Source: a virus. Taken from it: a stretch of 64,000 nt of DNA. The DNA is taken from positions 1 to 64,000 of the IMG/VR virus record IMGVR_UViG_3300036861_000275. One strand, written 5' to 3'. Within the stretch, counting starts at the first letter, position 1; every line of letters starts with the position of its first letter. The notes below the pieces were generated by a model, which was not told the DNA's origin, searched no databases, and worked only from the letters and a program-made list of their open reading frames with translations. Both the position numbers and the translations under genes were made by a program. Below are positions 19,015 through 35,413 of the stretch, piece after piece.

Positions 19015-19466
19015 TTGGCGCGCCTCCGTTTATTGTCCTGGCGCTTACACTCTTTACAGCTCCTCGCGCCGGCTTTGGTGATGTATAAATTATCGCCCGA
19101 GTACAGATGCTCACGTGGGCAATGTGTCTTGGCTATGTTGTGTTCGCCGCGGTTCAGATTGCTAAGGTTGGGTACGTGCCGTCCTCTGGCCACACAGTCT
19201 CGCATGTTATCCGATTGAGTCCCGCGATATAAATGTTCTGGCTCGAAACAAGGCGGATTGTCACAAGCATGTAGGACCATCGGGCCATCTCCAGGCAGTC
19301 CTATCAGATCGGCCATGACAATGTGGACTTTGAGCGTGAGTCTGCCGTGGCGCACTTGGCCGTAGCCGTGCTCGTTGGTCGAGCCGTCCCAGATTAAACA
19401 GGCGCCTTTACGCCGACCGCGCGCAGTGAGGCGCTCAATCGTAAGCGGTGTTCTAGCCGGCGGCAT
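19011..19466 (-). CDS. HNH homing endonuclease
   Basis: CLIWDG...GYG...VLHACDNPPCFEPEHLYRGTQSDNMRD; KTHCPREH...CKEC. Confidence 0.88.
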   Translation of the reverse strand: MPPARTPLTIERLTARGRRKGACLIWDGSTNEHGYGQVRHGRLTLKVHIVMADLIGLPGDGPMVLHACDNPPCFEPEHLYRGTQSDNMRDCVARGRHVPNLSNLNRGEHNIAKTHCPREHLYSGDNLYITKAGARSCKECKRQDNKRRRAK

Positions 19467-20409
19467 TAGCTACATTCCTGATGAACTTGATTTCCTCGGC
19501 TAGGTTTTTGGTCAAATCGTGTCTCTCCTCGATCACACGTCTAGCCCTAGCCCTCAGCCAATCTCCTTTGGCGGCAGATATGGCGAGCTCGATCCGTGCC
19601 GATAACTCGTCTATCCGATCTGGCTCATGAGTAAAACACGGGTACGTCTTAGCGTCTGGAACGCCTGTCGAGACCACGCACGGTAAGCCGCAGGCCATAG
19701 CTTCCCAGAGCGCCTTCGGAGAGCCCTCCGACCATGACGGCATAGCAAACACGTCGGCGTCGCGTAGCATCGCGGAGACCTGGCCGTAGGACACCCGTCC
19801 AGGGAATAGAGTATATCTCCCTTCTGATACCGCTTTAGATACCAACTTCAACCTTTCAGGTCCTTCACCGAGGATGGTGAGGTTGACCATAGATCCTAGC
19901 CGGAGACTGTTGACGGCCTCGATCAGGTTCCCGAAATTCTTTTCCTTCGAGAGCCGCCCTATCGCAAGCACTTCACAGGTCGGCCTCGTCCGTTTGCTTA
20001 CTGGTATCCAGAACTTATCCAACGGCACGCCATTCGGAATGACCGTCACTGAAACATCTCGGTACCGGGTCCGAAGGGCCCAGCGTTTTTCTAGGCCATA
20101 GGCCGATACAATGATCCCGGCCGCGAAACGGCATGCCCAGTTACGTAGTGTCGCCCACATAGCGGCCTTGTAGGTCTTGCCGGCCAATCTAGCGAGCTCG
20201 GCATGGTCATAGCCGAGTGTCAGGACGAACGGTGGACCTCCGGCCATGCGCGCCCTAATGGCCGGGATGGCATAGCGAAGATTCGTTACATGTACGGCAT
20301 CGGCGCCATCTATGGTGTCCGTCACCTCAAACGCCTTGGCGTAAGCGTCCCTGTCCAGCTGGGTTCTCTCGTCAGCAGGAGACGGATCTCGTAATACCGC
20401 TAGGCGCAT
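19453..20409 (-). CDS. Glycosyltransferase family 4
   Basis: VIPNGV, IGRLSKEKN, DVFAMPSWSEGSPKALWEAMACGLP. Confidence 0.9.
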   Translation of the reverse strand: MRLAVLRDPSPADERTQLDRDAYAKAFEVTDTIDGADAVHVTNLRYAIPAIRARMAGGPPFVLTLGYDHAELARLAGKTYKAAMWATLRNWACRFAAGIIVSAYGLEKRWALRTRYRDVSVTVIPNGVPLDKFWIPVSKRTRPTCEVLAIGRLSKEKNFGNLIEAVNSLRLGSMVNLTILGEGPERLKLVSKAVSEGRYTLFPGRVSYGQVSAMLRDADVFAMPSWSEGSPKALWEAMACGLPCVVSTGVPDAKTYPCFTHEPDRIDELSARIELAISAAKGDWLRARARRVIEERHDLTKNLAEEIKFIRNVANAAG

Positions 20410-21593
20410 GGTAGCCCCCGATAAACCCTTAATAACCGTTCCGCTATTAAGACTTTAGAGAATCTCTGTAAGACGTTCTGTCTGGCTTCGGGTATATTCC
20501 AGGGCCACTTACGCTGGATGAGTTGCAGCGCAATTTCCGGAATACACTCAGGACTTGTCAAGGTACCGGTACCCTTGGTGATGATCTCTGGCAGGCCGCC
20601 CCTATCAGTTGCCAGGATGTACCTCTCTTGTGCCTGCGCCTCGAGGGCGGTCCGCGGCAGCGTATCGCATTGAAGTGGCGGGATCATGACAAACGTCGAT
20701 GCCCGCATCCATCGCAACACCTCGGTGCGTGGTAACGGCCCGACCGAGAGGACGTTGGGATGTGTCTTGTCCTTTTGCCCTACATGTACGAATGCGGCTT
20801 GCTTATGCCCTTGAGTCGCCGCCATCGTGAACAGTCCCCATCCCTTACCAGGGCTCGGCTTGCCGACAAAGAGCACGACAGGACGGAACCCTAATTCGTG
20901 TCGGTCCCGCAGGTTTATAGCCTCCGCTAGGAAAACGGGCGGCTCTGGGTTGACGGGTGACGGTATAACAACACTTGTTATATTCCGCTGAGAGTAGACC
21001 TGCCGCAATGCCTCGGATGGGAAGACCACCGCGTATGCGTGCTGTAGTTGATCTAGGATGCCGCGTCGCCAACGATAGCCTAGAGCGCGTTGAACGTAGG
21101 CTCGATGCCCGCCATACTGGCGCACAAATTCCGGGATGCACTCCGTCATCAGCTTGCCCTGACCGCAGTCGCTCGGAATGGTGATCCGGGAGAGCAGGCA
21201 GACCGCAATCGGACAAAGCAGGCCCACGTCACGCAGTGTGACAATCCGCCTAGTTCTCCAGTCTTTGACCTGGCAGAGCGCCCCGAAGGAACGCCAGTCT
21301 TGAGCATGTACAACCTCAGTCGGCATCATGACGTCCGCGTAGGCGGCCATCACGTCCTTCCACCCGCCAGACTTCCAGTAGTCTCGTTCCCTGTCCGAGG
21401 ACGGCGCAGGGAACCTGATCACATCGACGCCGCCCACAGATTCCTCGTCTTGGGTTTCTTCTATCCACTTAGGGGTGAGCACCTGAACCTGATGGCCCAG
21501 CATCGCAAGGGTTTCCGCCTCGAGGCGGACACTCTCAGCAGAGCCACCCTGTTCCGAGGGAGGATAGTGTTCGCATAACATCAAGACTCTCAT
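20400..21593 (-). CDS. Glycosyltransferase family 4
   Basis: MRVLMLCEHYPP..GGSAE, FVGKPSPGKG, DTLPRTALEA, ATDRGGLPEII. Confidence 0.88.
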   Translation of the reverse strand: MRVLMLCEHYPPSEQGGSAESVRLEAETLAMLGHQVQVLTPKWIEETQDEESVGGVDVIRFPAPSSDRERDYWKSGGWKDVMAAYADVMMPTEVVHAQDWRSFGALCQVKDWRTRRIVTLRDVGLLCPIAVCLLSRITIPSDCGQGKLMTECIPEFVRQYGGHRAYVQRALGYRWRRGILDQLQHAYAVVFPSEALRQVYSQRNITSVVIPSPVNPEPPVFLAEAINLRDRHELGFRPVVLFVGKPSPGKGWGLFTMAATQGHKQAAFVHVGQKDKTHPNVLSVGPLPRTEVLRWMRASTFVMIPPLQCDTLPRTALEAQAQERYILATDRGGLPEIITKGTGTLTSPECIPEIALQLIQRKWPWNIPEARQNVLQRFSKVLIAERLLRVYRGLPCA

Positions 21594-21615
21594 CTGGCCA
21601 TCAGTTCTGCGACCG

Positions 21616-21798
21616 TCACTTGCCGTCGCCGATGCAAGGACTCACCAGATGTTCAGGATTTGCGAAGAAGGTTTTAACCCTGACAGCGCTAAGGGCGGCC
21701 GCTCTGGCATCCTCACAAGCCCCCTTTGAGGCGAACTCCATCTTGACGGGCCGATCCCCCAGGAATATCACGAAGAAGTAGATTAGCGCCCCGATCAT
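21616..21798 (-). CDS. Small protein with hydrophobic N-terminus (EFxSxxAC motif)
   Basis: MIGALIYFFVIFLG...EFASKGACEDA. Confidence 0.55.
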   Translation of the reverse strand: MIGALIYFFVIFLGDRPVKMEFASKGACEDARAAALSAVRVKTFFANPEHLVSPCIGDGK

Positions 21799-22511
21799 GC
21801 CGGCCTCAACACATACAGCGTCGTGGCCGCGGGCGCCTGGAGATGCTGAGGAAGATTCTCGATCGAGCGCACTGAAGGCCCGATCATGGTATCGAAGTTA
21901 TGCCGCCATAGAACGTAGTCCCCGGTCGACTTCAGCGCATCCCATGAGGCTGGCCCTTTGGCGATGGTGCCGAAGCCAGGTTCTTCGACCAGGACTACGG
22001 CTTGCCTTGCCCGATGGCGCATCCACGACACCAGCCGCTCCGCTCCGGTACGCTCCAGATGCCCGAGCACGCCGACCGTGAAAATGACATCGGCGGCATA
22101 CACCGGCGATAGCAGCATGTCGTAAAGATTGGCGGCAGTGAAGATGGACTTTGCGGGGAGTGTGGACTTGCATTCCCGGATCGCGTCAGCGTTAATGTCC
22201 ACCCCGATCACGCCCAGGTCGACATACTTCCGGCGTAGCTCTGCTAGATTACGGCCGCAGCCGCAGCCTAGTTCCATGACGTTCTTCGCATCCATGAAAA
22301 CGCCATGCTTAGCCAGCCAGCGAGCGCGTAGCTGGGCCCTACTGAGACTAGTGGGAGCATCCCTGTAGCCCAGCATATACGTCTCCGTACGTTGCGAGAT
22401 GCCCCGCCACTGTTTTGCTGTCATCTCCCGGACGGCTAACACGTCTGTCTGGTCAGGATAGCGTCGCAATTTCTCCCGTAGCATCCGCACTGTCTCCGTC
22501 CATTTGTTCAT
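21795..22511 (-). CDS. Class I SAM-dependent methyltransferase
   Basis: VMELGCGCGRNL, GVDIN, DVIFTVGVLGH. Confidence 0.85.
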   Translation of the reverse strand: MNKWTETVRMLREKLRRYPDQTDVLAVREMTAKQWRGISQRTETYMLGYRDAPTSLSRAQLRARWLAKHGVFMDAKNVMELGCGCGRNLAELRRKYVDLGVIGVDINADAIRECKSTLPAKSIFTAANLYDMLLSPVYAADVIFTVGVLGHLERTGAERLVSWMRHRARQAVVLVEEPGFGTIAKGPASWDALKSTGDYVLWRHNFDTMIGPSVRSIENLPQHLQAPAATTLYVLRPA

Positions 22512-23515
22512 AGCATGCTCCGGTAGGCCGATTCGATCCTGTCTAGCCAGACTTCCGGCGTGTATGCGCCTTGCCACGCCGCACGATTCATGACCGCTAG
22601 CGTAGTCGGCTGACAAGCCAGCGCCCTAACAATAGCATCCGGCATATCACGTTCCGGCATGGCCTGACGATTCCCGAGCAGGTCGAGCATTGGCCCCCCT
22701 TCCGCCGCAACTATCGGCAGGCCGGCGGCCATCGCCTCGAGCACGGCTAGAGGGCATCCCTCCATCTTGGACATGAAGACGAATAGGTTTGCTGTGCGTA
22801 ACAAGGCGTCTTTCAGTAATTCAGCGGTGCGTCCCAGGAAAAATACACGCTCCTGAATATCGAGGGTCCTGACGAGCGCCCGTGCCTCGGCCAGTAGCGG
22901 TCCGTCCCCGACCCAAATCAGGTCAGAGTCAGGCCGCATCCGTACTACATCTGCCCAGAGACGCACTAATTCTAGCGGCCGCTTTCGCGGTATTAGTGGC
23001 CCTACGGTAACGGCTAGATTCAATGTCCGGTAATACCCTTTGCCGCCCGGTTCTCGGATGCCGCATCCAGATACAACCACTGGCGGTAGCTTAGCATCCT
23101 TGCCCACGCGGGCAAACTCATTACGCAACTGCTGCGCCACGAAATGACTGTCGACCACCACCAGATCAGACTTAGATATGACCCAGCGCTCGACCGGTGC
23201 GCAGACAGGCTCCCAGTGATGTACATGCGTGACCATGGGAAGCCCTGTGCGGGCCAGGATACACGCCGGCCCTAGATGGCTTGTGGAATGACACCTGAGC
23301 AGGTCAAATGCCGGCCCAGATCGGCTGGCGGCCCGCAGCATCGGCGCCATGGTCGCCCACGCCACCGGCCACCGGCCTAGTCCTTTGCGCGGGAAAGATA
23401 CCGTACGGACACCATGTCCACGCTGTCCCAGCCCTAGAGCTAGCTCGTATTCGTACCGACTTCCGCCGCCGGTAGCGTTTGCCGTGAATCCGCAGGACGG
23501 ACTGAGGATTCTCAC
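22508..23515 (-). CDS. Glycosyltransferase family 4
   Basis: VGPLIPRKR, VGDGPL, EGCPLAVLEAMAAGLP; GTG start coupled to an upstream micro-ORF. Confidence 0.9.
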   Translation of the reverse strand: MRILSPSCGFTANATGGGSRYEYELALGLGQRGHGVRTVSFPRKGLGRWPVAWATMAPMLRAASRSGPAFDLLRCHSTSHLGPACILARTGLPMVTHVHHWEPVCAPVERWVISKSDLVVVDSHFVAQQLRNEFARVGKDAKLPPVVVSGCGIREPGGKGYYRTLNLAVTVGPLIPRKRPLELVRLWADVVRMRPDSDLIWVGDGPLLAEARALVRTLDIQERVFFLGRTAELLKDALLRTANLFVFMSKMEGCPLAVLEAMAAGLPIVAAEGGPMLDLLGNRQAMPERDMPDAIVRALACQPTTLAVMNRAAWQGAYTPEVWLDRIESAYRSML

Positions 23516-23579
23516 CACAGCCCCAAGAAAAGCATTCGTATCAGCCAAGCGCCTAGTAGTGCCAACATGACCCAGCGCC

Positions 23580-24680
23580 TTACCATTTTCCTGTTATCCG
23601 TCCTATTTCGCGCACTACGGTGACCTGTTGATCAGCCGTAATGTCGGGACCGCTTGGCAAAATCAACAGCGTCCTAAGAAGATTCTCGGCTACAGGTGTC
23701 GGTGTAGATACCGACACATGCGGATAAAATCCGAGAGGGTAAAAACCCGGCCGCGTCTCGACACCAAGTTCGCCCAAAGCTAGCCCCAGGTCTCCTGGTA
23801 ACATTTTTGTGAACGTGTCCGTCTTGAGTGCGGTCAGCCACCACGCCGGCGTATGCGGGCCTGGGCTCTGAAAGGCGGACTCCGACACGCCGGTCGCCAG
23901 ATGCTCGAACGCAGACAACCATCCAGCGTGAACCTGATTGCGTTTGAAGACCAGTTCCTGAATACGTTCTAGTTGGGCACAGGCCAAGGCGGCGTTCAAA
24001 TGAGCCGGCTGCATATTCAGACCGGGCTTAGTCGCCCAGTACCGAACCCGACTGCACGGTAAACCGTTGTGCGACCACTGCCGCACGAGACGAGCAATCT
24101 CAGAATCATCGGTCAGGACGGCGCCTAGTTGGCCACCGCTGATGGTCTTTTCCCCACGGAAACTCATGATGCTGACCGCTCCACGACTGCCAGCTACTTG
24201 ACCGTTGGCATACATGGCGCCGTGGGCCTCGGATGCGTCCTCGATCAACGGCACGTCGTGTTGTGAACACCAATCCGCTATGAGGTCGCTTTCCTTGGCC
24301 AGCACTCCGTAGGTATGAGCTAACACTACCGCTTCTAGTGGAGCCGTCCCTATATCAGAGACGAGGTGCATGCCAAAAGTTCTTGGTTCGGCGTCGGCTA
24401 TCCGGATACTGAGCCCGGCCATGATAGCGGCATTGCAGACCGCGTCGCAAGTATACGCCGGGAGCAAGACCGGTCCCTTGATGTCAAGCGCCCGGAGTGC
24501 CAGGTAAAGCGCGGCCGTACCGGACGACACGGCAACCACGTGGGCTCGGCCAGTCAGTTTGCACAGCCAATCCTCGAACCGATCGACATACGGGCCAACA
24601 GTCACCCAGCCGGATCTAAGGGCCGCCGCTACGTATTCCTGTTCTAATGGACCAAGCGACGGCGAATTTAGCGGAATCAA
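23580..24680 (-). CDS. DegT/DnrJ/EryC1/StrS PLP-dependent sugar aminotransferase
   Basis: GPYVDRFE, SSGTAAL, IEDASEAHG, SFRGEK (catalytic Lys), LPSG. Confidence 0.92.
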   Translation of the reverse strand: MIPLNSPSLGPLEQEYVAAALRSGWVTVGPYVDRFEDWLCKLTGRAHVVAVSSGTAALYLALRALDIKGPVLLPAYTCDAVCNAAIMAGLSIRIADAEPRTFGMHLVSDIGTAPLEAVVLAHTYGVLAKESDLIADWCSQHDVPLIEDASEAHGAMYANGQVAGSRGAVSIMSFRGEKTISGGQLGAVLTDDSEIARLVRQWSHNGLPCSRVRYWATKPGLNMQPAHLNAALACAQLERIQELVFKRNQVHAGWLSAFEHLATGVSESAFQSPGPHTPAWWLTALKTDTFTKMLPGDLGLALGELGVETRPGFYPLGFYPHVSVSTPTPVAENLLRTLLILPSGPDITADQQVTVVREIGRITGKW

Positions 24681-25597: not shown

Positions 25598-26313
25598 TTG
25601 CAGTCTCCCGGCGTCCATCGCCGCTGGGCGGCTATTGTGGCGGCGCGCTCTAGATCGTCCAGTGTGTCTATCTGACACGCACGGTCCTCGGCGGGATACG
25701 GTACTACCAATCCGGCTATGGTGTACCCTTCCATACTGCCGGCACGAATGCAGCGTACCCGCACAGCGTCAATCCAGCCGGCCGATTGGAATGCTGGCGG
25801 TAACAACTGACGTGGATGATTAGCTCGGCTATCCTCAGAAATGTAGGGGGCCAGCCAAGGCTGACCCGAGAGATCGCCGAGAACCTTATACATCTTGAGA
25901 GGATGGTGGATGGCCGGCACCACAGATCGTATCGAGTCTATCTCTGGATGTGCATCCATGAACTCGACTACGTCTTTGATGTTCTCCGGATTCCTGAACG
26001 GTGCCGTCGGGCGCAGCCAGACTATCAAATCGTCCGAGTCCAAGACGGTCTCGAAAATGAGATGCTGCGCCACTGGTAGATCCGGTGTCCAATCCTGACT
26101 CCAACGGCTCGGCCTTTCCAGGACGCCCACGTTGAGCCTCTCCGCCTCTGCCAGGATTTCGACTGATTCACTAGACACGATGACTGGGTAGGTCGTGTGG
26201 CGCGTGGCCATGACAGCCCACTCCAAGAGGGTGGCGCCGTTCAGTTTAGACAGATTCTTGCCGGGTATGCCCTTAGATCCACCGCGGGCCGGTATTACGA
26301 TTGTAGTTTTCAA
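25594..26313 (-). CDS. neuA: NeuA-family acylneuraminate cytidylyltransferase
   Basis: IVIPARGGSKGIPGKN, LRPTAPFR, IDTLDDL. Confidence 0.92.
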   Translation of the reverse strand: MKTTIVIPARGGSKGIPGKNLSKLNGATLLEWAVMATRHTTYPVIVSSESVEILAEAERLNVGVLERPSRWSQDWTPDLPVAQHLIFETVLDSDDLIVWLRPTAPFRNPENIKDVVEFMDAHPEIDSIRSVVPAIHHPLKMYKVLGDLSGQPWLAPYISEDSRANHPRQLLPPAFQSAGWIDAVRVRCIRAGSMEGYTIAGLVVPYPAEDRACQIDTLDDLERAATIAAQRRWTPGDCK

Positions 26314-27245
26314 TGCCGACCGCAAATGTGGTGCTCGATTACCCGTTCTAGGCCGGCTGGCAGCGGGATCGTAGCCTCCCACCCGAGGTTATTCAGTCGA
26401 TCCGTGTTCAAGCACTCGACGTAGCCGTTCTGGCTTCTGTCGATATTCAGGACCCGGGGCGTCACTTTGCCGCCGGTTAACTTACACACCAGGTCAGCCA
26501 CCTCCAGAACTGAATAGGTCATGGCGGAGGCGCAGTTATACGATCCTCTCGCGTCCTTGTTGGCCACCGCCTCGGCTAGGATCATGTACGCCCTCACGAC
26601 GTCATCGACATGGATGTAGCTCTTACGCGGGCTTCCGTCAGAGTTGATGACCGGGGATACCCAGCGTAGAGCCGACGAAACCGCGCTTGGGATCAGATGG
26701 TTGGAATGCGGATCGAGCTCGCCATAGGCATTGACATGCCGCAGGTTTGCCACCGGTAACCCATCGAGGGCCGCTTGGCTCACCAGTATGTCAGCCGCGG
26801 CCTTAGTAGCGCCGTATACGTCCACCGGGCGCAGCATATACTGCTCAGTCATCGCGGCGCCTGCATAGTTCCCGTACACACGATCAGACGATGCGAAAAC
26901 AGCAGCCTTCAAAGTAGGCTGGCCGTCTATCCGGATACTAGATAAAACATCATGCGCGGCCTGAACGTTCGCCAGGAATGCCCTCCCTGGATCATCTTTA
27001 CACTTATGCACGTCCACCGCTCCGGCCAGGTGAAATATGATTTCCGTTCCCCCAATATACTTCAAGCCTCGATAGACCGGCACGTCGCCAAGACCAAGGG
27101 CGGTCCATGCCCGACTGTCGCACACTAGATCACGGCCGGACACGACCGCGCCGGTATCTACCAGAACCTTAACCAAGTGCGATCCCACGAACCCGACACA
27201 CCCGGTCACAACCACTCCCTTGCCGCGCCAGAATGCGCTAGTCAT
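26310..27245 (-). CDS. NAD-dependent NDP-sugar epimerase/4,6-dehydratase
   Basis: VVTGCVGFVG, ASSDRVYG, YGATK, YIHVDDVV. Confidence 0.9.
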   Translation of the reverse strand: MTSAFWRGKGVVVTGCVGFVGSHLVKVLVDTGAVVSGRDLVCDSRAWTALGLGDVPVYRGLKYIGGTEIIFHLAGAVDVHKCKDDPGRAFLANVQAAHDVLSSIRIDGQPTLKAAVFASSDRVYGNYAGAAMTEQYMLRPVDVYGATKAAADILVSQAALDGLPVANLRHVNAYGELDPHSNHLIPSAVSSALRWVSPVINSDGSPRKSYIHVDDVVRAYMILAEAVANKDARGSYNCASAMTYSVLEVADLVCKLTGGKVTPRVLNIDRSQNGYVECLNTDRLNNLGWEATIPLPAGLERVIEHHICGRH

Positions 27246-27850
27246 ATCTTCACCTTTTTCCCTAGCGGAATACCGTGTAAGATCCCGAGGACATCCCGAA
27301 TGTATTCGCGTAGCCGGACCGCAGCGAACCACAGCCGCTCAAACCAGATAGCTTCCATCATGTAGACCGTATAGCCTTTGCTCCGGTCAGCCGGCCTGTA
27401 GTGAGCCTTCGCCCATCTGCGTGTGTCGAGGGTTCTCTCCAGGGCCTCGAGTTGTGAATCTCGGTTACCCTCTATGAATACCACCCCGCCGATAGCAAGC
27501 CTCCGGAAATGGTCGGACTGTGTAGTGCCGTCCACCACCAGAAAGTCATACAGGCAGTCGCCTGGTCCTAGACAAATCCGCAGACGAACTTCCTTCCCCC
27601 GTGGCAGGTTCTGACTTAACTGGGTACGGCACCAAGGTTCCGGTTCTTCGGCCACAATACGGGTATGCCGTGGGGCGGCCCGCATGATAATCGACGTCAA
27701 CGTCCCGATGCCGGCGCCTACTTCGTACACAAAATGAGGTTGGCAGCAGCGTATCCACCAGTCCAGACCCTCGCACGCGAAGACAGTAGCAATCTGCTCA
27801 GAGCCGGCTCGGCTAGCGAAATCCGCTCGGACTTCCGCTGGCGTCATCAT
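27242..27850 (-). CDS. SAM-dependent methyltransferase-like protein
   Basis: YEVGAGIGTLT, YDFLVVDG, GGVVFIE. Confidence 0.7.
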   Translation of the reverse strand: MMTPAEVRADFASRAGSEQIATVFACEGLDWWIRCCQPHFVYEVGAGIGTLTSIIMRAAPRHTRIVAEEPEPWCRTQLSQNLPRGKEVRLRICLGPGDCLYDFLVVDGTTQSDHFRRLAIGGVVFIEGNRDSQLEALERTLDTRRWAKAHYRPADRSKGYTVYMMEAIWFERLWFAAVRLREYIRDVLGILHGIPLGKKVKI

Positions 27851-29115
27851 CGGACTAAGCCGGCGATTAGCGTTGCTAGTCTCCTGGCCGTGTGTCCGTC
27901 AGTCTGAACTACGGACTGTGCATTATGGATAAGTCCGGATGCCAGCCATTTCGGCATTGTTCTATGAACTCGCGCTAGTACGGCCTGTTCTAGTTGCTCT
28001 TGCGTCTTGGCTACGACGACACCTGGCCAATCAGTAACGGCCTTCATATGCTCAAAGCCGGCATGGTCCAGGAGATCACCGGTCTCTCGGTCTCCGCCCT
28101 CACTACCGCCAGTTGATGGCCCATAACTGACCAGGATGGACGGAGTGCCTTGAAGCGCCGCCTCGATCACCAGAGTCGAGAATGCCGTAACAACCACCTT
28201 CACCTTGCCCAGCATCCCGCGCAGAGGCCCCGGCGCGCTAGCACCGGTATCCAGGTATACGCCGAGATCTCGCCATGCTCGCGATTGCTCGACAAGATCG
28301 GCCTTCGATCGGCCCTGTAGCCGGCGAGGGTGTAACCTATACCAGACCCTAAATCTGCGTTTCCTTGCCAGGTTAGCCAGATCCCTGACTAGGCCCTCCT
28401 CGTCCCGCATATAGGCTATAGACGTACCGGCCACAAGCACTATCGGTGGTTTGCCTGGTAGCAACCTTTTATTTATAGCCTCCGATGCTGGGGCGTCTAG
28501 GCGCAGCGATCCAATGATATGCACTTTGTCTGAGTCGAATCCGTGACAAAGAGCATGCGCTAAGGACGCCTTACCCCACACCGCGACGTGGTCAGGCTTG
28601 ACTAGATAACTACCCTTCGATGTTAACGTATCCCAGGAAGCAACGATGCCGAGAGTCGGGATACCTAGGCGCCTTGCGGACTTGAACAGATCCGCCTCTT
28701 GGCCGCGGTAAATATCCGTGACCGCAACTATGACGTCAGGTTGAAGCACTTTGAGCGCTTGCACGGTCAGTCTACGTACCGGGATCAGCTTTTCGATACT
28801 CCTAGCAAGCCGCTCGCCGTCGCGCACATACCGATCAACAAGACTACATAGCCAGATCTCAAGCCGGAGTCGTGTTGCTCTACGCCTGCCCAGCTTCGTC
28901 TTGGCCGTCACAGAACCGTGTCGTTCCCAGGCGGTATAGATGAGAGTCCTGAGAATCCGACGCCGCAGCCAGGATACCGGAGCCGGCGCTTGCACGTCTT
29001 TGTCTAACAGATGTTCCGCCGTGATGCCGGCTCCAGATAGATAGTAATCCATCTTCGCCTGGTACCAGTCGCGCTCCAGGGCCTCGCTCCCTAAGTAGAC
29101 TAGAACTCGTTTCAT
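27847..29115 (-). CDS. GT-B-fold protein, candidate nonulosonate/glycerophosphate transferase
   Basis: ARRLGIPT...SWDTLTSKG, VAVWG, YRLHPR, STLVIEAALQGTP. Confidence 0.7.
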   Translation of the reverse strand: MKRVLVYLGSEALERDWYQAKMDYYLSGAGITAEHLLDKDVQAPAPVSWLRRRILRTLIYTAWERHGSVTAKTKLGRRRATRLRLEIWLCSLVDRYVRDGERLARSIEKLIPVRRLTVQALKVLQPDVIVAVTDIYRGQEADLFKSARRLGIPTLGIVASWDTLTSKGSYLVKPDHVAVWGKASLAHALCHGFDSDKVHIIGSLRLDAPASEAINKRLLPGKPPIVLVAGTSIAYMRDEEGLVRDLANLARKRRFRVWYRLHPRRLQGRSKADLVEQSRAWRDLGVYLDTGASAPGPLRGMLGKVKVVVTAFSTLVIEAALQGTPSILVSYGPSTGGSEGGDRETGDLLDHAGFEHMKAVTDWPGVVVAKTQEQLEQAVLARVHRTMPKWLASGLIHNAQSVVQTDGHTARRLATLIAGLVR

Positions 29116-29390
29116 GGCCTAGGAGGGCTATTGATTTCGATCCAGGCTCGCGCGCCCCATGGTAGAGGCTTGTTTTTGTCGTACACCACCCGACCCATCA
29201 CGCCCTCGTGCCCACATTGCTGACAGACGGCAGTGAGCGGTATCTGGTGGGCGTAATCCTGTTTACCGTACTTGCCATTACTGATTCGCAGCGGTGGCTT
29301 ATTCTCGCCTCGCTTGAGGTTCGAGATGATGGTGTTTTTGCAGACAGTGATGTAGATCAGAAAGCTCTTCACGGCTGGCAAACTGGACAC
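29112..29390 (-). CDS. Hypothetical phage protein
   Basis: VVYDKNKPLPWGARAWIE motif. Confidence 0.6.
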   Translation of the reverse strand: MSSLPAVKSFLIYITVCKNTIISNLKRGENKPPLRISNGKYGKQDYAHQIPLTAVCQQCGHEGVMGRVVYDKNKPLPWGARAWIEINSPPRP

Positions 29391-29578
29391 GGTACCATAT
29401 CGTGTTCAGTCTCGGGGTCTGCGCAGCAGCAGGTGTCCTCGAAACAGTCATCAAGGACGATGCCTTCTCCGCCGCATTCGTAGCACTCGTCTCCGTCATA
29501 CTCATCCGGCCATTCTTCGGTCCCGTTTGTCTCATCAATGGCATCGTCAGAGTATCGCGGATCATCCGGATTCATCAC
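29369..29578 (-). CDS. Small acidic Cys-rich protein
   Basis: CYECGGEG...DCFEDTCCCADP...CPVC. Confidence 0.65.
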   Translation of the reverse strand: MMNPDDPRYSDDAIDETNGTEEWPDEYDGDECYECGGEGIVLDDCFEDTCCCADPETEHDMVPCPVCQP

Positions 29579-29582
29579 ACCA

Positions 29583-30470
29583 TCACCTTACCTGATGATT
29601 GTCCGCGTGGGCAACAGGAAACTGCTGGATGCGTAGGTCCTCTGGCCATTCGGCCGGATCGCTGCCTTTGCGGTCGCGGATATTGACTGTCTCGATCCTT
29701 CCGCTAGCCGTAAGGTCGCTGTCGTAGACATTAGCCCCTAGCTGCTTGACGAACACTGGTACGCCGTAGCATTGTGCAACCACATCGCGAATCCAGTCGA
29801 GGTCGCATGGTCTAGCGTGAGGCCCGCTCTCGCCGCCTATGATGACCCACTGCTGGGTGCCTTTGTAGGTGAGCCACGTCTTGGGGATCTCGACAGGGCC
29901 TAGCAGCGGCTCTATCGAGAGAAACTGCACGGCGGCCGGCGTAGCTTGCAAGTCGGATATGCGCTGGTCCATGGCGGCCTGATTCTCGATAGAGACGCCG
30001 AGCCAGACGTTAGGGAGGACCGGATAGCCGCGGCGCTGCATAGTCTGCATCGACTCCATCATCCGCTCGGGCCGCTTCGTGAGGACCTGGTAGGTGTGTC
30101 GCGGCGTGTGTTCCATCACGCTGAAGATGGCGTCGATCCACCCGTCCTCGACCTTCTCGTGGAACAGGTCGGACATGGAGTTGACGAAAATCCTCTTGGG
30201 CGATTTCCAGCGGAGCGGTAGATCTAAGGCTTCTTCGATGAACCGGACCTCGCCGGTCCAGCGGGCAACCGTAGCGCTTTCGCCTGTCCCGTCTTCTACG
30301 ATGCGCTTACGTCGGGCAAGCCCCTCGTATGGCTGGCCCGGACCAGAGAACCGAGCGGCGATCACCTCGGCATAGCAGTTACGACAACCCTCGGAGACGC
30401 GAGAACATCCTCTGATTGGATTCCAAACCATATCCGTCCAGGAGATTGAGGTCTTACCGGCCACTGGCAA
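29583..30470 (-). CDS. Phage Gp37/Gp68 (DUF5131) radical-SAM-like protein
   Basis: ISWTD..WNPIRGCSRVSEGCRNCYA, IFVNSMSDLFH, LTKRPERM, WVIIGGESG, VFVKQLG. Confidence 0.93.
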   Translation of the reverse strand: MPVAGKTSISWTDMVWNPIRGCSRVSEGCRNCYAEVIAARFSGPGQPYEGLARRKRIVEDGTGESATVARWTGEVRFIEEALDLPLRWKSPKRIFVNSMSDLFHEKVEDGWIDAIFSVMEHTPRHTYQVLTKRPERMMESMQTMQRRGYPVLPNVWLGVSIENQAAMDQRISDLQATPAAVQFLSIEPLLGPVEIPKTWLTYKGTQQWVIIGGESGPHARPCDLDWIRDVVAQCYGVPVFVKQLGANVYDSDLTASGRIETVNIRDRKGSDPAEWPEDLRIQQFPVAHADNHQVR

Positions 30471-31446
30471 CTCGGTCTTCGAGATCCATCACGATCCGTA
30501 GGCCCGCTTTACCATCCGCCCATCCTAGATACCGTTCGATGTACTCCTGCCGGGCCGACTCAATCATCCCGAATGGCACGAATCCGTACGCGGCTTCGTA
30601 GCGCATGCCAGTTCCGGGCCAACTGTAAAAGTTACGCTCAGACCAGGGATTGAAGTCCACACCTCGGCCGGCGTAAGCGTTCCATCCTCGCGGCGCTACA
30701 TTCCAGGACGGAACATTAGCAAGCACGGCCTCAGCCACTCCAGAGGAGCAATGGTGAATGAAGAGCCCGGCCCGGTTCAACAGCGTCACCGGGTCCTGAT
30801 TGGCTACTACGTCGGCAGCGTCGCGCGTGTACTCCGGCAGATACACCTTGTCGCGGGCCGAAACCACCAGCGGCCAGCCTAGCTTGTCGGCAGCCTGCCT
30901 GGCCGCCTTCACAGTCCGCCGATCCTCGAACTGCATCTTGAGCCAGAAAAGACTGTCAAGGTGGTGCGCGCCCCATGGGAACGGGTAGTAGAGTACCGAT
31001 TTCGGCGGTAGCGGTAGCGGATCGGTGGGCCCACTCATAGGATGCCCGACCGGGACGAAGTTTCTAGGAAACAGCCTTTCCTGCCGTTCCTGCCAGAAGC
31101 CTAGCCATGCCGAGCTCCAAGAGTACACGACGTCCCAGTGCTCTGGGTTCAGATAAACCAGATCCGACCACGAAGTCTGGAGTGCGGCGCATATCCCACC
31201 GATGCCGCGAGGATCAATGTCTAGAGCTGCTGGAACCAGCCAGGCGTCCATGGCCGGTGTCAAGTCATCCGGACCGCGGTAGTGGACCCAGTATGGCAGG
31301 CGCTCTCTGCTAACCGTGTGCTTGGCGTCACCCGGCTTGGGTCGACCTAGCACATAGACATCATGCCCACGTGCCGTGGCTACTAATGCTGTCCCCTCGC
31401 ACCAGCGCCATTGATTAGCTCGCCTGATTACGATGCCTAACTTCAT
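30454..31446 (-). CDS. Divergent GT-B-like protein, candidate sugar transferase/hydrolase
   Basis: FVPVGHP, HCSSGVAEAVLANVP, YIERYLG.ADGKAG.RI; embedded among neu genes. Confidence 0.55.
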   Translation of the reverse strand: MKLGIVIRRANQWRWCEGTALVATARGHDVYVLGRPKPGDAKHTVSRERLPYWVHYRGPDDLTPAMDAWLVPAALDIDPRGIGGICAALQTSWSDLVYLNPEHWDVVYSWSSAWLGFWQERQERLFPRNFVPVGHPMSGPTDPLPLPPKSVLYYPFPWGAHHLDSLFWLKMQFEDRRTVKAARQAADKLGWPLVVSARDKVYLPEYTRDAADVVANQDPVTLLNRAGLFIHHCSSGVAEAVLANVPSWNVAPRGWNAYAGRGVDFNPWSERNFYSWPGTGMRYEAAYGFVPFGMIESARQEYIERYLGWADGKAGLRIVMDLEDRVASGR

Positions 31447-32504
31447 ACCAGGTAGCTCCACATGATCGTACTGCCGGCCGGAATATCGACGGCCACACGA
31501 CGGCCTATCAGATACACTTCGTCCGGCGGCTCGAACCCGCCTAGGACGGATGGTCGGCGATAGTCGAAATCATCGCACTTGATAGTATCGCCAGCGTGCA
31601 GCGTGCTACTTGCGAAGGCGCAGCGCCTAGCGGCGGCTTGGCTATAACGTTCGGCCGGGAGGATACGTTTCCTCTCCGGCTTACCTATCGACGTCCAGAC
31701 ATTGTGCATGGCAAGCACAAAATCCCGAGCCTCGTTTGGCGCTACGGCCGTCGACTGCTCAGGTCCAGCGCTGTGACGATCTAGCGTCAAGTTTTTTTCG
31801 ATCATAGAGGCGCCGAGGGCCACTGCGGCGGCATCCACATGCCAGCTCCGAATGTGCGATGAGTAACCGATAGCAGCCTCCGGAAAAGCAGCCATCAAGA
31901 CAGGTATCTGAGACAGGTTGACTCGACGCATCGCGGCTGGGTACCCACCCGCTACTTGGTGTATCATCACTTCGCTGGCGGCATCAATAACGGCGTTGAC
32001 CGAGCGCTCTAATTCTCCCAGCGTTGCGTGCCCGGTATCGAGCAGGATAGGCTTCATAGTCCTAACAGCGATACACCGAATCAATTCCGTGTTTGTGATG
32101 TCGCCAGAGCAGATCTTGATCGCTTTAACCTTGGCTGCGATGGCTGTATCTAGGGAAGTCTCGGCATTGTCGACCGTCGCGATCAGGTCGAGCCCTAACT
32201 CCTCGCAGCGCGCCCCGACGATCTTCCATTCATCACGGGTCAATGTCCGCCGCTGGAGAGCCGCCCGTTGAGATTCCTCGCGTTCGACACCATCGGCATC
32301 GGTAAAGTGGACTACGGGAGCGCCTCCGATCAATGTATCCACATCCAATATCTGGACCTTGAGAGCGTCGGCGCCGGCATTGGCCGCACACTCTGCCAGT
32401 CTCATGGCAGACATCAGACCTGACATGGTCCCGCCGATTTCAAACGTGATATACGGCGCGAGATCCGATCCTAGCGTCTTGTAGCCTATTCTGATGGTAG
32501 CCAT
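31443..32504 (-). CDS. neuB: Divergent NeuB-family synthase with C-terminal SAF domain
   Basis: ADALKVQ, KICSGD, GYSSH, IEKNLTLDR; C-terminal LHAGDTI...RRP..G...DIPAGSTI. Confidence 0.85.
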   Translation of the reverse strand: MATIRIGYKTLGSDLAPYITFEIGGTMSGLMSAMRLAECAANAGADALKVQILDVDTLIGGAPVVHFTDADGVEREESQRAALQRRTLTRDEWKIVGARCEELGLDLIATVDNAETSLDTAIAAKVKAIKICSGDITNTELIRCIAVRTMKPILLDTGHATLGELERSVNAVIDAASEVMIHQVAGGYPAAMRRVNLSQIPVLMAAFPEAAIGYSSHIRSWHVDAAAVALGASMIEKNLTLDRHSAGPEQSTAVAPNEARDFVLAMHNVWTSIGKPERKRILPAERYSQAAARRCAFASSTLHAGDTIKCDDFDYRRPSVLGGFEPPDEVYLIGRRVAVDIPAGSTIMWSYLV

Positions 32505-33019
32505 GTGTCTCCCGCAATAGAAAAGTAGAGACTGTCCCACAGCTTTCCGTTCCAGAACTTGCGGCGTGGTAGCGTCGTGGTGTAGGCGGATAATCTTTCG
32601 GCTATAGTCTTCCAGAAGACTACAGCGTCAGTATTACAGGTGTACACCTCTCCGTACACAGTCTCCAGACGCATCCGCATGAACGCTTCCACCAGTATCG
32701 CTTCCACGGTTCTGCTACCGTACCTAGTCCCGCTATGCCTATACCTAGGGGCTACGATGAGGCTGATTTCAGCAGAGCCGTTCTCTGGCGAGATGTCGGT
32801 CAAGCCCGCCATCCCCAGGAAGTCATGTTGTCGGACAGCCCAATACCTGTGGCGACTCAATGGGTTACAGACCACGTTACGGTAAAACTCGCGTTGCGAC
32901 TCTGGCGTAGAGAGCGTGGCGGTGCGTAGCGCCCCTCGAACACCATTGCGCCACGCCGCTACTTCAACACACTCCTCTTCCGAGAGCGCATCTAGCCGAA
33001 TGTTAACAGGCGGAATCAA
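32486..33019 (-). CDS. GNAT N-acetyltransferase, PseH-like
   Basis: VAAWRN, AEISLIVAPRYR, VYGEVYTCN; located between neuB genes. Confidence 0.8.
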   Translation of the reverse strand: MIPPVNIRLDALSEEECVEVAAWRNGVRGALRTATLSTPESQREFYRNVVCNPLSRHRYWAVRQHDFLGMAGLTDISPENGSAEISLIVAPRYRHSGTRYGSRTVEAILVEAFMRMRLETVYGEVYTCNTDAVVFWKTIAERLSAYTTTLPRRKFWNGKLWDSLYFSIAGDTWLPSE

Positions 33020-33819
33020 GGCCGAACCTGATATGGAACCATAGGCTGTTCACACTCCTGTAGGCGTTTCACTCCGTGTCCTACCATCGCCTCGGCGTGA
33101 CGGATGAATTGAACGTACTCTGCCAGAGACTGTGGGTCGTGCGCAACAGCATAATCCGCGTTCGTGGATGGCGTATCCTCCAGTCGGGCATGGACTTCGA
33201 TGATCTCTGCTCCGGCAGCCACAGCCAGACCACCGGTCGTACGTAGTCTAGTATGGTCACTGAAGCCTACTGGCACCGGCGCCAGCATTCGGCGTAGCTG
33301 ATAGATGGCGTCGAGGTGCACGTCTCGGGGAGGCGTCGGATAGGCAGAAACGCAATGCAAGACTCCTCCCAGGTTGCCCACCTGGGCAACCGCCGATGCC
33401 ACATCGTGGATGTCCAGCATACCGGTGGACAGCAGTATCGGCGTGCCAGGAAACCGGTCGTGCGCCCGAATGAAGACCGTATCCCTCGCCTCGAAGCTGG
33501 CTATCTTGAACTGCTTGACTAGCGGCGCCACCGCTTCTATATCTTTCGGGAGGTAGACGGTGCACATAAAATCGAGGCGGGTTTCGTGCGCCATGAAGGC
33601 TATTTCGTTGAGCCAGGTCCCCGGGAATTCTATCAGCTTGTAGGCGTCCAGGTACTCAGGGGCCCGCCGTCGCTCACAGATAGCCTTGGCGTCGGACGTC
33701 CATTGAAACTTCACGGCGTCGGCTCCGGCAGCCTTGGCGTTGGCAACGTGGGCCCGCACCATGTTTCGGTCACGCATGTGCGTGCTGCCGACTTCCGCTA
33801 TGATGTATGTCTGGCTCAT
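33016..33819 (-). CDS. neuB: NeuB/PseI-family synthase (short form)
   Basis: IIAEVG, ADAVKFQ, KIASFE, LSTGM, HCVSAYP, GFSDHT, IEVH. Confidence 0.9.
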   Translation of the reverse strand: MSQTYIIAEVGSTHMRDRNMVRAHVANAKAAGADAVKFQWTSDAKAICERRRAPEYLDAYKLIEFPGTWLNEIAFMAHETRLDFMCTVYLPKDIEAVAPLVKQFKIASFEARDTVFIRAHDRFPGTPILLSTGMLDIHDVASAVAQVGNLGGVLHCVSAYPTPPRDVHLDAIYQLRRMLAPVPVGFSDHTRLRTTGGLAVAAGAEIIEVHARLEDTPSTNADYAVAHDPQSLAEYVQFIRHAEAMVGHGVKRLQECEQPMVPYQVRP

Positions 33820-34757
33820 CCCAACATTCCTTTCAGGACATTCGGGTCTAGCTTCCTCGCGGTGCGGCTTGATACTTCTCCTCTCACGGCGCCCACTGTC
33901 GCATCGGTGGATTTAATGACGTAGTGTTCAAAATCAACCCCGTACACAGAGTTTATGAGCGTCGCGCGTCTAGCCTCGTCCGCCGAGATGACTACTTCAT
34001 GGAGTTTTTCTCCGGCCCGCAAAGGAATTCGGCGCTGTTTGGCTCCAGGCGCCACTACTTCAGCTAGTGTCGCCAGACTTGCAGACTCCATCGCCGGGAT
34101 GTATACCTCCCCTCCTTCCATCAGGCTTATGGCCGCGATCGCGAAGCCCACCACTCGGTCCATCGTGATCCAGAACCGTGTCGCCTCGGGGACGGTGATG
34201 GTGATAGGCAGCCCGGCCGCGGCCTGCCGGCGCCACGTCAGGATAACCGACCCAGCACTACCTAAGACGTTCCCCCAGCGCGTACAGGAGATGCGTGTAT
34301 GAGGGCGCCCCCATTTATTGGCATGGACGGCGTAGAATTCGGCGGCTAGCTTGCTGGCCCCATAAGCAGTGGCCGGGGCAGCTGCCTTGTCGCTGGAGAG
34401 AACCAGCACCTTCGGCACATTGCGTTTTAGGGCCGCCCGGATCACCTGGATAGTCCCGTCTATATTAATCGAATACATCTCGCGCGGGTCATTCCCGTCT
34501 ACGCGCTTCATGGCGGCCGCATGGATGATGGTGTCGATTCTGTGCATGGCGTCGTAGAGCGACTCCGGCGAACGTATGTCGCCGAGAATCCATTCCACCG
34601 TGGCAGGATAGTCCAAGGATTCCCGTAGCTTGGCCTGGACGGATTCATTTCTGGAGTAGGCCACTATCTTCTCGGGCGGCACCTTGGACGCCAGCAGATT
34701 CCTGATGAGCGCGCTCCCGAAAGAGCCCGACGCTCCCGTAATCAGGACTCTCGTCAT
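33816..34757 (-). CDS. pseB: PseB/FlaA1-like UDP-GlcNAc 4,6-dehydratase
   Basis: LITGASGSFG, IHAAAMK.V, SSDKA, YGASK, RWGNVLGSAGSV, TRFWIT, RAGEKLHE. Confidence 0.88.
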   Translation of the reverse strand: MTRVLITGASGSFGSALIRNLLASKVPPEKIVAYSRNESVQAKLRESLDYPATVEWILGDIRSPESLYDAMHRIDTIIHAAAMKRVDGNDPREMYSINIDGTIQVIRAALKRNVPKVLVLSSDKAAAPATAYGASKLAAEFYAVHANKWGRPHTRISCTRWGNVLGSAGSVILTWRRQAAAGLPITITVPEATRFWITMDRVVGFAIAAISLMEGGEVYIPAMESASLATLAEVVAPGAKQRRIPLRAGEKLHEVVISADEARRATLINSVYGVDFEHYVIKSTDATVGAVRGEVSSRTARKLDPNVLKGMLG

Positions 34758-35413
34758 ATCTTGCCCCTGTCGACCAGGGTATTCGCGAACAGAAGGTCGA
34801 CGGCATCGTTCACGTCGACTGACTCTACCGGGTTAACTAAATATGGCACAATACTGAGAGAATCGTACCAGGACTTCGGCTTACGGCACAGCCAATCTGC
34901 TCTAGCCCAGATGACAGTTCCGTCATGCTTAAGAGCGTCACCTGGCCATCCTGCCGCATGAGATAATACCAGTTTACCTTGGCTGTCCAGAAAACACATA
35001 TACCGATAGTCTTGCCTGAATGGCACCATCGACATGACGGCATCCACTGTGCCGTCGTATAGCAATCGAGATTCTACCAGGTGTCGTAGGGTGCGTAATG
35101 GCGACGTCGGCAGGAGTAACGCAAATAGATCCCACTGACCGTGTTTAGGCTGAAGGAACTCTTGAACACATTCCAACGTTCTAGTTGGTTTAGGGTCCTG
35201 TTGTGGGTGTAGGAAGATGTCTTCATATTCCTTAAAACTTTGATCCCAGCCGTCGTATGAGATCGCTATCTCGTCCACGAGCCCCAACCATTTGGCTTGT
35301 CGTGCAATCTTGACCGCTCGACCCACAAGCGTTTCCCCGCCGACTAGGCGGAAGTTTTTGCGGGTTAGCCGTTCCGAATGGATCTTCACCGGGATCACTG
35401 CTAGCGTTCTCAT
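34754..35413 (-). CDS. neuA: NeuA/PseF-family cytidylyltransferase
   Basis: AVIPVK..SERL.RKN, LPTSPLR, SVDVND..DL. Confidence 0.85.
   Translation of the reverse strand: MRTLAVIPVKIHSERLTRKNFRLVGGETLVGRAVKIARQAKWLGLVDEIAISYDGWDQSFKEYEDIFLHPQQDPKPTRTLECVQEFLQPKHGQWDLFALLLPTSPLRTLRHLVESRLLYDGTVDAVMSMVPFRQDYRYMCFLDSQGKLVLSHAAGWPGDALKHDGTVIWARADWLCRKPKSWYDSLSIVPYLVNPVESVDVNDAVDLLFANTLVDRGKI

Follow-up and report, generated by a model that had tools for sequence, protein, structure and literature searches.

Nonulosonic acids are bacterial surface sugars of flagella, capsules and lipopolysaccharide (LPS), and they serve as receptors for many phages. In the present analysis, a dense run of sugar genes was studied in the IMG/VR virus record IMGVR_UViG_3300036861_000275, a single record of 92,312 bp of which bases 1-64000 constitute the window. 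The run occupies positions 19453-35413 on the - strand (about 16 kb, about 20 genes), and its soluble enzymes very probably synthesize one or more nonulosonates activated with cytidine monophosphate (CMP), as judged from family and motif comparisons. We further propose, at close to an even chance, that the phage makes these CMP-nonulosonates, builds a glycan from them and attaches this glycan to outer proteins of its own virion, most likely by a lipid-linked route that ends in a Wzy_C membrane protein encoded outside the window.

The run is unbroken; its genes overlap their neighbours or sit at most about 30 nt apart, and several overlaps are 4 nt long. Pfam, NCBIfam and PDB-sequence searches form the basis of the enzyme inventory, and they recovered on the - strand all the enzyme classes that an earlier note, made from the letters alone, had listed. 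No convincing membrane span was found among the proteins encoded at 19453-35413. Starting from the first gene of the run, the inventory is as follows.

34754-35413, - strand: NeuA-type cytidylyltransferase-like protein 2, 219 amino acids (aa); first gene of the run
33816-34757, - strand: PseB-like, putatively inverting uridine diphosphate (UDP)-N-acetylglucosamine 4,6-dehydratase, 313 aa; Polysacc_synt_2, 223 bits
33016-33819, - strand: NeuB-family synthase 3 (NeuB3), barrel only, 267 aa; NeuB, 151 bits; 72% identical in the related contig G001
32486-33019, - strand: GNAT N-acetyltransferase, weakly PseH-like, 177 aa; Acetyltransf_3, 37.7 bits
31443-32540, - strand: NeuB-family synthase 2 (NeuB2) with SAF domain, 365 aa; NeuB, 161 bits, plus SAF
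30454-31461, - strand: orphan GT-B-like protein, 335 aa; no Pfam, NCBIfam or PDB sequence match
29583-30470, - strand: DUF5131 (phage Gp37/Gp68 family) protein, 295 aa; PF07505, 270 bits
29112-29578, - strand: two or three small overlapping open reading frames (ORFs), 69-92 aa; no family match; G001 has two small ORFs there
27847-29115, - strand: orphan GT-B protein, 422 aa; no Pfam match; UDP-sugar 2-epimerase-like predicted fold
27242-27850, - strand: weak FkbM-like methyltransferase, 202 aa; no Pfam match; NCBIfam FkbM, 27 bits (cut-off 37.7)
26310-27332, - strand: second nucleotide-sugar epimerase/dehydratase of the short-chain dehydrogenase/reductase (SDR) type, 340 aa; Epimerase, 118 bits; GDP_Man_Dehyd, 89 bits
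25594-26382, - strand: NeuA-type cytidylyltransferase 1, 262 aa; CTP_transf_3, 50.6 bits
24677-25678, - strand: NeuB-family synthase 1 (NeuB1), barrel only, 333 aa (longest ORF); NeuB, 227 bits
23580-24680, - strand: DegT/pyridoxal-phosphate sugar 4-aminotransferase, 366 aa; DegT_DnrJ_EryC1, 212 bits
22508-23548, - strand: GT4 glycosyltransferase c, 346 aa; Glycos_transf_1, 75 bits; Glyco_transf_4, 38 bits
21795-22616, - strand: class I S-adenosylmethionine (SAM) methyltransferase, 273 aa; Methyltransf_25, 36 bits
20400-21593, - strand: GT4 glycosyltransferase b, 397 aa; Glyco_transf_4, 44 bits; Glyco_trans_1_4, 39 bits
19453-20409, - strand: GT4 glycosyltransferase a, 318 aa, last of the run; Glycos_transf_1, 80 bits

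From these genes a CMP-nonulosonate pathway can be put together on paper, as had been claimed. The PseB-like dehydratase scores 249 bits on the NCBIfam PseB model TIGR03589 (cut-off 407.75); its best solved relative is Helicobacter pylori FlaA1/PseB at 181 bits, followed by CapE/CapD at about 132 bits and PglF at 93 bits, and on these sequence scores it groups with the inverting enzymes. The DegT aminotransferase is matched better by the LegC family model (176 bits; cut-off 420) than by the PseC model TIGR03588 (138 bits; cut-off 423.5), and the only NCBIfam match of the GNAT protein is PseH TIGR03585, at 36 bits against a cut-off of 93. For the second SDR enzyme, the GalE, RmlB and LegB models all score far under their cut-offs. 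The three GT4 enzymes of the cluster have Pfam E values of 1e-9 to 1e-22. Two SAM methyltransferases had been expected; the one at 21795-22616 is clear, with 'pseudaminic acid biosynthesis-associated methylase' as its best NCBIfam model (37 bits; cut-off 112), whereas the other gives a weak FkbM match below the cut-off.

Both cytidylyltransferases find their best structural-sequence matches among CMP-N-acetylneuraminic acid (Neu5Ac) synthetases. Cytidylyltransferase 1 matches 6IFD and 1EYR over its full length with an E value of about 5e-17. Cytidylyltransferase 2 reaches only 16 bits, under the cut-off, on Pfam CTP_transf_3; a two-sequence profile made from it and its G001 orthologue matches the Neisseria meningitidis enzyme 1EYR with an E value of 4e-8 over residues 3-228, and it keeps the motifs AxIPxKxxSxRLxxKN and LLPTSPLR, which we take to be NeuA family signatures. 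The PseF model TIGR03584 gives 64 and 20 bits on the two proteins (cut-off 206).

The three synthases differ in their domains and presumably in their metal sites. NeuB1, which among solved structures is matched best by the short Leptospira NeuB 6NCS (135 bits) and next by the PseI 8H2C (115 bits), contains the motifs AEIGQNH, SSH and IEAH; NeuB3, which lacks the SAF domain, contains AEVGSTH, FSDH and IEVH. We assume that SxH and ExH are the two metal-binding His motifs of the N. meningitidis NeuB TIM barrel and that SAF belongs to the full-length form. NeuB1 and NeuB3 thus keep both His motifs and are devoid of SAF, as in the short Leptospira enzyme. On the other hand, SAF is present in NeuB2, where the motifs are altered to EIGGTM and IEKN, with Asn where NeuB1 and NeuB3 have His; both altered motifs are kept in the G001 orthologue.

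The two orphan proteins had been described together as GT-B-like, and for the 422-aa protein this is borne out by an AlphaFold model, while for the 335-aa protein it comes from distant family links only. Among 5.8 billion clusters, no more than 12 homologues of the 422-aa protein were found, and an IMG/VR scan with it returned no match. Its AlphaFold (AF2) model, with a predicted local distance difference test (pLDDT) score of 84.7, has a GT-B fold, for which the top 31 VIA matches are all UDP-sugar 2-epimerases at Z scores of 20.8-23.2; glycosyltransferases reach at most 20.6 and come within 2-4 Z units of the 2-epimerases. NeuC is matched at Z 21.3, and the 2-epimerase matches align about 300 residues at a root-mean-square deviation of 3.8-4.1 and 12-17% identity. 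Judged by its modelled fold, the protein is a candidate for the NeuC/LegG-type step. One homologue (P0006, 611 aa) is a fusion with methyltransferase domains and carries Pfam Epimerase_2. A metagenomic contig of 32,396 bp seems to contain a PseB-like gene together with a fusion of a 422-aa-like protein and a methyltransferase. Among the weaker BFVD matches of the model, ranks 10 and 21 are uncultured Caudovirales proteins, a 936-aa 'Methyltransferase FkbM' and a 545-aa 'Acylneuraminate cytidylyltransferase'. Their lengths, sufficient for fusions with a 422-aa-like domain, hint at such an architecture and, with the P0006 fusion, hint that the predicted fold works with methylation and nonulosonate activation.

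For the 335-aa protein, an exhaustive profile search found 172 relatives among 1.8 billion representatives, a few of which match Glyphos_transf, Glyco_transf_4 or DUF6716, and the clusters nearest to it in the ESM-Atlas are viral, some of them carrying Glyphos_transf or alpha-2,8-polysialyltransferase domains. A PDB profile search with a 44-sequence alignment of the family found nothing, and an AF2 model made from three sequences reached a pLDDT of only 39.8. Scans of IMG/VR and JGI metagenomes with the family returned G001 and two short contigs only. The family links suggest that the protein belongs to a family, not described so far, of GT-B-like transferases or hydrolases; it is a candidate nonulosonate transferase or PseG-like hydrolase and is not demonstrably PseG. 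A paralogous relation of the 422-aa and 335-aa families was considered and is not claimed; hhalign aligned a 31-column motif only, at a probability of 2.5%.

A first step of the mechanism may be drawn from this inventory. Soluble enzymes would make one or two 5,7-diamino nonulosonic acids, activated with CMP, from a nucleotide-activated N-acetylhexosamine, through the PseB-like 4,6-dehydratase, the DegT aminotransferase, the GNAT acetyltransferase, a GT-B-fold hydrolase or 2-epimerase, NeuB condensation with phosphoenolpyruvate and NeuA-type CMP activation. From their order, the genes seem to fall into two half-modules. The one upstream would be of the Pse type (cytidylyltransferase 2, PseB-like dehydratase, NeuB3, GNAT, NeuB2 with SAF and the 335-aa protein) and has no aminotransferase; the downstream half would be Leg/Neu-like (422-aa protein, FkbM-like protein, SDR, cytidylyltransferase 1, NeuB1 and DegT) and has no acetyltransferase. 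The halves would share the sole DegT and the sole GNAT, giving two nonulosonates; alternatively, the surplus paralogues may form heteromers in one route.

The cluster appears to be a genuine part of a phage genome. Major head, portal and large terminase (TerL) genes, expected from the earlier view of this DNA as a phage genome, were found in the part of the record outside the window, and the major head protein shares about 32% identity with its counterparts in the podophage group Bcep22, PBC5, POI1126 and LASTA. The GC content is uniform, at 0.57-0.59 throughout the cluster and its flanks. The independent IMG/VR phage contig G001 (67.8 kb) is collinear with the record from inside the 422-aa gene, via the structural genes, past both ends of the record; G001 ends inside the 422-aa gene, and the comparison of the cluster covers the upstream half. 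Seven cluster genes are kept in G001 at 53-72% amino acid identity, and the upstream flank at 57-94%. For the PseB-like protein, some 10 close relatives were found in metagenomes at 48-68% identity, whereas identity is 40-46% for most bacterial PseB homologues, among them the homologues on megabase contigs. Because of the uniform GC content, the synteny with G001 and the mostly 40-46% identity of the bacterial PseB homologues, it is very unlikely that the cluster is a chimera or a recent host island, and the claim that it is native to the phage stands. In addition, positions 65.4-67.8 kb of G001 correspond to window 687-2795 plus genome 91964-92290; since the collinear contig joins the two ends in this way, the record is close to complete and circularly permuted by this comparison, although it is classed as linear and as 80% complete by CheckV.

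The reading of a glycan destined for the particle depends on genes beyond the window. The absence of Wzx/Wzy-like membrane proteins had led to the proposal of a cytoplasmic acceptor, but that absence is true inside the window only. The relevant genes in the remainder of the genome are as follows.

Genome 68990-70300 (L001:5990-7300): Wzy_C (PF04932) membrane protein, 436 aa; 33.9 bits (cut-off 31.7); at least 8 hydrophobic segments
Genome 79441-80463: fourth GT4 glycosyltransferase; in the head module, overlapping the start of the gene for an 817-aa protein beside the portal gene; kept in G001
Genome 81475-82257 (L002:1475-2257): soluble GT2 glycosyltransferase; 91 bits; kept in G001
Genome 89894-91063 (L002:9894-11063): GDP-mannose 4,6-dehydratase-like (Gmd-like) protein; 254 bits; kept in G001

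The genome encodes no polytopic membrane protein other than the Wzy_C protein, whose gene sits two genes from the major head gene, among virion genes. ORFs near it have N-termini that resemble Sec signal peptides, including MKKVMLVLAILTLFPGVAWA in the pectate-lyase-fold tailspike and MKTLKWLAASLAALILCAAPAAAQ in the product of the gene adjoining the head gene. Besides the tailspike, the candidate signal-peptide proteins are encoded at genome 64661-65845, 65857-66858, 66807-67151 and 70406-71365. The arrangement of Wzy_C with the structural genes is kept in G001 (79%) and in the 84.5-kb, 90% complete genome G002 (49%), and both orthologues score above the Pfam cut-off. Because the sole polytopic protein is a Wzy_C protein encoded two genes from the head gene, near signal-peptide ORFs and in an arrangement kept in both relatives, a virion destination is favoured. 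The position of the fourth GT4 gene in the head module points the same way. The GT2 and Gmd-like genes are far from the cluster and both present in G001, which indicates that the sugar toolkit is dispersed over the genome.

In the second step of the proposed mechanism, the sugars would be methylated and then assembled into an oligosaccharide by the three cluster GT4 enzymes and the 335-aa protein, together with the GT4, GT2 and Gmd-like proteins encoded elsewhere. In the third step, the glycan would grow on the host undecaprenyl carrier, with the initiating transferase and the flippase supplied by the host, and in the periplasm the phage Wzy_C enzyme would pass it on to those outer virion proteins that carry signal peptides, which would give the particle a coat of acidic sugar. 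In its fullest form, which we regard as unlikely, the phage would own a bacterial-type general O-glycosylation system, with two CMP-nonulosonates, a phage-specific lipid-linked oligosaccharide and its own Wzy_C enzyme transferring to Sec-exported virion proteins, so that the acidic coat would be specified by the virus and not borrowed from the host.

Several results weigh against the synthesis-to-coat scheme. None of the cluster enzymes reaches its NCBIfam equivalog cut-off, and because all scores are far below these cut-offs, the substrate and stereochemistry, that is, the identity of the sugar, are not readable from them. All three synthases score higher on the NeuB_NnaB model (229, 183 and 146 bits; cut-off 400) than on the PseI model TIGR03586 (182, 135 and 123 bits; cut-off 340), leaning to NeuB/NnaB despite the PseB-like dehydratase. 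There is no recognizable PseG, for which neither orphan GT-B protein gives a Pfam or NCBIfam match. With respect to the lipid-linked route, neither a Bac_transf initiating phosphoglycosyltransferase nor a flippase is present in the genome, Wzy_C being its sole polytopic membrane protein; the route must therefore rely on host enzymes that accept a foreign glycan. The Wzy_C family cannot tell a protein O-oligosaccharyltransferase from a WaaL ligase or a Wzy polymerase, and no PglL-specific domain was detected, only Wzy_C being matched at E <= 0.01. Moreover, G002 shares the head module and Wzy_C in the same arrangement, and no NeuB, GT4, GT2 or epimerase gene was found in it; because G002 has the ligase without the cluster, the ligase is older than the cluster and independent of it. 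By this genome comparison, the sugar cluster seems to have been added on, as the supplier of a donor specified by the phage. Finally, the complete IMG/VR genomes G003 and G005 contain PseB-like, DegT and NeuB genes and lack both Wzy_C and GT4.

Remodelling of the host surface is fairly unlikely, and it is the alternative that survives best. A nonulosonate unit would be built on undecaprenyl phosphate, and Wzy_C, acting as a WaaL-like ligase or a Wzy-like polymerase, would deliver it to the LPS or capsule of the infected cell, for receptor masking, exclusion of other phages or prevention of progeny adsorption to debris. Wzy_C is an O-antigen ligase/polymerase family and GT4 and GT2 enzymes are typical for O-unit assembly; however, the Wzy_C gene lies inside a virion module by signal-peptide proteins, a linkage that is kept at 49% in G002 and is unexpected for an LPS ligase, and the genome encodes no Wzx, Wzz, GtrA/B or O-acetyltransferase-type membrane protein. 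Phage neuABC-type clusters have been read as surface genes in the literature (bioRxiv 10.1101/655167), and Acinetobacter capsules receive nonulosonate-modifying enzymes, Wzy and O-acetyltransferases from prophages (PMC12053666, PMC9241936, PMC6586298). Phage_integrase and Resolvase were searched in the present genome and neither gave a match; lysogenic conversion is therefore disfavoured, and any effect on the host surface would be limited to the lytic cycle.

Direct glycosylation of virion or other phage proteins in the cytoplasm, sugar by sugar, by soluble GT4 and GT-B enzymes and with Wzy_C unrelated, is more doubtful still. It would resemble flagellin pseudaminylation or mycobacteriophage capsid glycosylation, and the solubility of all the glycosyltransferases, a further point against the lipid-linked scheme, is compatible with it; yet five to seven transferases point to a chain of several sugars, as is more typical when assembly takes place on a carrier. 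The features of the 335-aa protein lie near TagF-like and polysialyltransferase-like clusters, while no Maf/MptE-like domain (PF01973) was matched in the entire 92-kb genome at E <= 0.1. The 817-aa protein whose gene start is overlapped by the fourth GT4 gene (pair at genome 76988-80463, L001:13988-17463) contains Ser/Thr/Pro-rich N-terminal repeats, TPLRSLLGG / TPLSKLLGG, and the two may form a cytoplasmic transferase-acceptor pair; on the other hand, a Ser/Thr-richness scan gave no outstanding acceptor protein. The absence of Wzy_C from the nonulosonate-cluster phages G003 and G005 fits the cytoplasmic route, which nevertheless leaves unexplained the presence of a lipid-linked-glycan transferase among exported virion proteins.

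That the sugars modify phage DNA, that they drain host precursors or that a bacterial locus was joined on in the assembly, making the region a chimera, is highly improbable: T4 DNA glucosyltransferases are GT-B enzymes, but a thymidylate-synthase-like hydroxymethylase was not found in the genome, and a chimera is in practice excluded by the uniform GC content, the phage genes on both sides and the independent syntenic contig. A 'DNA beta-glucosyltransferase' occurs in the BFVD fold list of the 422-aa model only at rank 43, and T-even DNA glucosylation is mentioned in a Chem Rev review (PMC9614988), while the literature searched gave no nonulosonate-modified DNA.

The cluster had been called unusual for a phage. 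This is true for cultured phages, since a NeuB1 homologue occurs in 3 of 50,697 cultured-phage records, and a megablast search with the 16-kb run found no match in 50,697 phage records. It is not true for uncultured phages, in which nonulosonate clusters are already known from a 2019 lake-virome preprint (bioRxiv 10.1101/655167); there, the Lake Biwa genome LBVG_26 holds neuA, neuB, neuC, capD, pseA, pglC and pglD, which were read as host-surface genes. Beyond this preprint, literature searches turned up neither nonulosonates on virions of phages nor viral auxiliary genes for them, a review of giant-virus glycans does not mention nonulosonic acids, and no experimental nonulosonate on any phage particle was found in the literature searched. 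Thirty-three other IMG/VR loci were obtained with the PseB-like or NeuB1 query, and within the fetched 20 kb, 32 of them have at most one NeuB and the remaining one has none; several NeuB genes were seen in the present phage and in G001. In the 77-kb genome G003 (IMGVR_UViG_3300026088_000014; locus L005:5630-13198), a compact set of nonulosonate genes adjoins an SU10-like portal gene; the set consists of two methyltransferases, a GFO/IDH/MocA oxidoreductase, a CTP_transf_3::Aminotran_3 fusion (class-III aminotransferase), a PseB-like protein, DegT and NeuB with SAF.

Other features of the locus touch the pathway less directly. The DUF5131 gene is missing at the corresponding place in G001, and a homologue (L011:2921-3856) lies about 0.9 kb from a homologue of the 335-aa protein in a 4.4-kb groundwater contig; the protein weakly matches 'radical SAM mobile pair protein A'. 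Among the possibilities are a mobile insertion and a linked function, and a role in the pathway is doubtful. The last cluster gene is followed by an HNH endonuclease gene at 19011-19466, and the pathway genes lie outside the head module. The cluster had been placed directly downstream of the replication genes, but only a Phg_2220_C protein and an RDF-like protein were found there. A promoter and terminator scan of 18.0-37.5 kb found sites no more frequently than in shuffled sequence. Between the tail genes and the early region, an ORF of 3,979 aa (window 43617-55556) is 54% identical in G001 and presumably, by analogy with Bcep22-like phages, may encode a giant virion or ejection protein. Genes for a RusA resolvase, an RNA-ligase-family protein and a dCMP deaminase are situated 3' of the terminase gene in the direction of transcription (genome 87265-89291, L002:7265-9291).

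If the proposed mechanism is true, the phage makes and probably wears nonulosonates. This would change the view of the particle surface with respect to its charge, its stickiness to mucus or soil and its recognition by predators and immune systems, and it would bear on how phages avoid re-adsorbing to their own hosts. Within a small space, the genome also encodes very divergent enzymes, among them two orphan GT-B families (12 and 172 relatives) and a NeuB paralogue with a presumably altered metal site, and it is a viral case in which a connection of a sugar-nucleotide pathway with a Wzy_C transferase can be put to the test.

Compared with known systems, the cluster is closest on paper to the pathways for CMP-pseudaminic acid and for Leg/Neu5Ac. 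In H. pylori and Campylobacter jejuni, the CMP-pseudaminic acid pathway proceeds in the order PseB-PseC-PseH-PseG-PseI-PseF. The phage set shares with it a dehydratase nearest to H. pylori FlaA1/PseB, a DegT aminotransferase, an acetyltransferase that is of the GNAT type as in PseH and not of the LbH type of PglD/LegH, a NeuB-family synthase and a NeuA-type cytidylyltransferase. It differs in being encoded by a phage, in scores far under the equivalog cut-offs, in synthases that score higher as NeuB/NnaB than as PseI, in having two orphan GT-B proteins in place of a PseG homologue, and in the number of synthases (three) and cytidylyltransferases (two). The downstream half resembles the Leg (LegB, C, H, G, I, F) and Neu5Ac (NeuC, B, A) pathways in its SDR enzyme, its DegT enzyme with LegC as the best model, its 2-epimerase-fold protein, its NeuB and its NeuA-type enzyme; in contrast, no LbH-type acetyltransferase was seen, the 2-epimerase is recognized by fold only (12-17% identity), and the LegB and LegC scores are far below their cut-offs.

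As in the PglL/WaaL (Wzy_C) systems, a polytopic Wzy_C protein is encoded by candidate exported acceptors, and the donor would be an undecaprenyl-diphosphate-linked glycan built by soluble GT4 and GT2 enzymes. The phage system departs from them in having no PglL-specific domain and no initiating transferase or flippase of its own, and its acceptors would be virion proteins, which, to our knowledge, have not been described as PglL-type acceptors for tailed phages. Unlike the serotype-converting temperate phages with Gtr, Wzy and Oac proteins, the present phage has no integrase or resolvase match and a single polytopic membrane protein. Mycobacteriophages that glycosylate their virions use host nucleotide sugars and one or two transferases, with neither a nonulosonate pathway nor a membrane ligase, and the present phage differs from them in having genes for a predicted nonulosonate pathway and for a Wzy_C protein. 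The likeness to mycobacteriophage virion glycosylation lies in phage glycosyltransferases near structural genes and in the phage's own particle as the proposed acceptor; in one genome announcement, capsid glycosylation was deduced from two glycosyltransferase genes (PMC11256854).

The Lake Biwa genome LBVG_26 (bioRxiv 10.1101/655167) is likewise from a metagenomic tailed phage with a multi-gene nonulosonate pathway whose function was read from sequence alone; the present phage differs from it in its three NeuB proteins, two cytidylyltransferases, five classical glycosyltransferases, two orphan GT-B proteins and virion-module Wzy_C. Particular to the present phage are thus the size of the toolkit, the three NeuB and two NeuA paralogues, the two near-orphan GT-B families, the lack of Maf, and the co-occurrence of Wzy_C with exported virion proteins.

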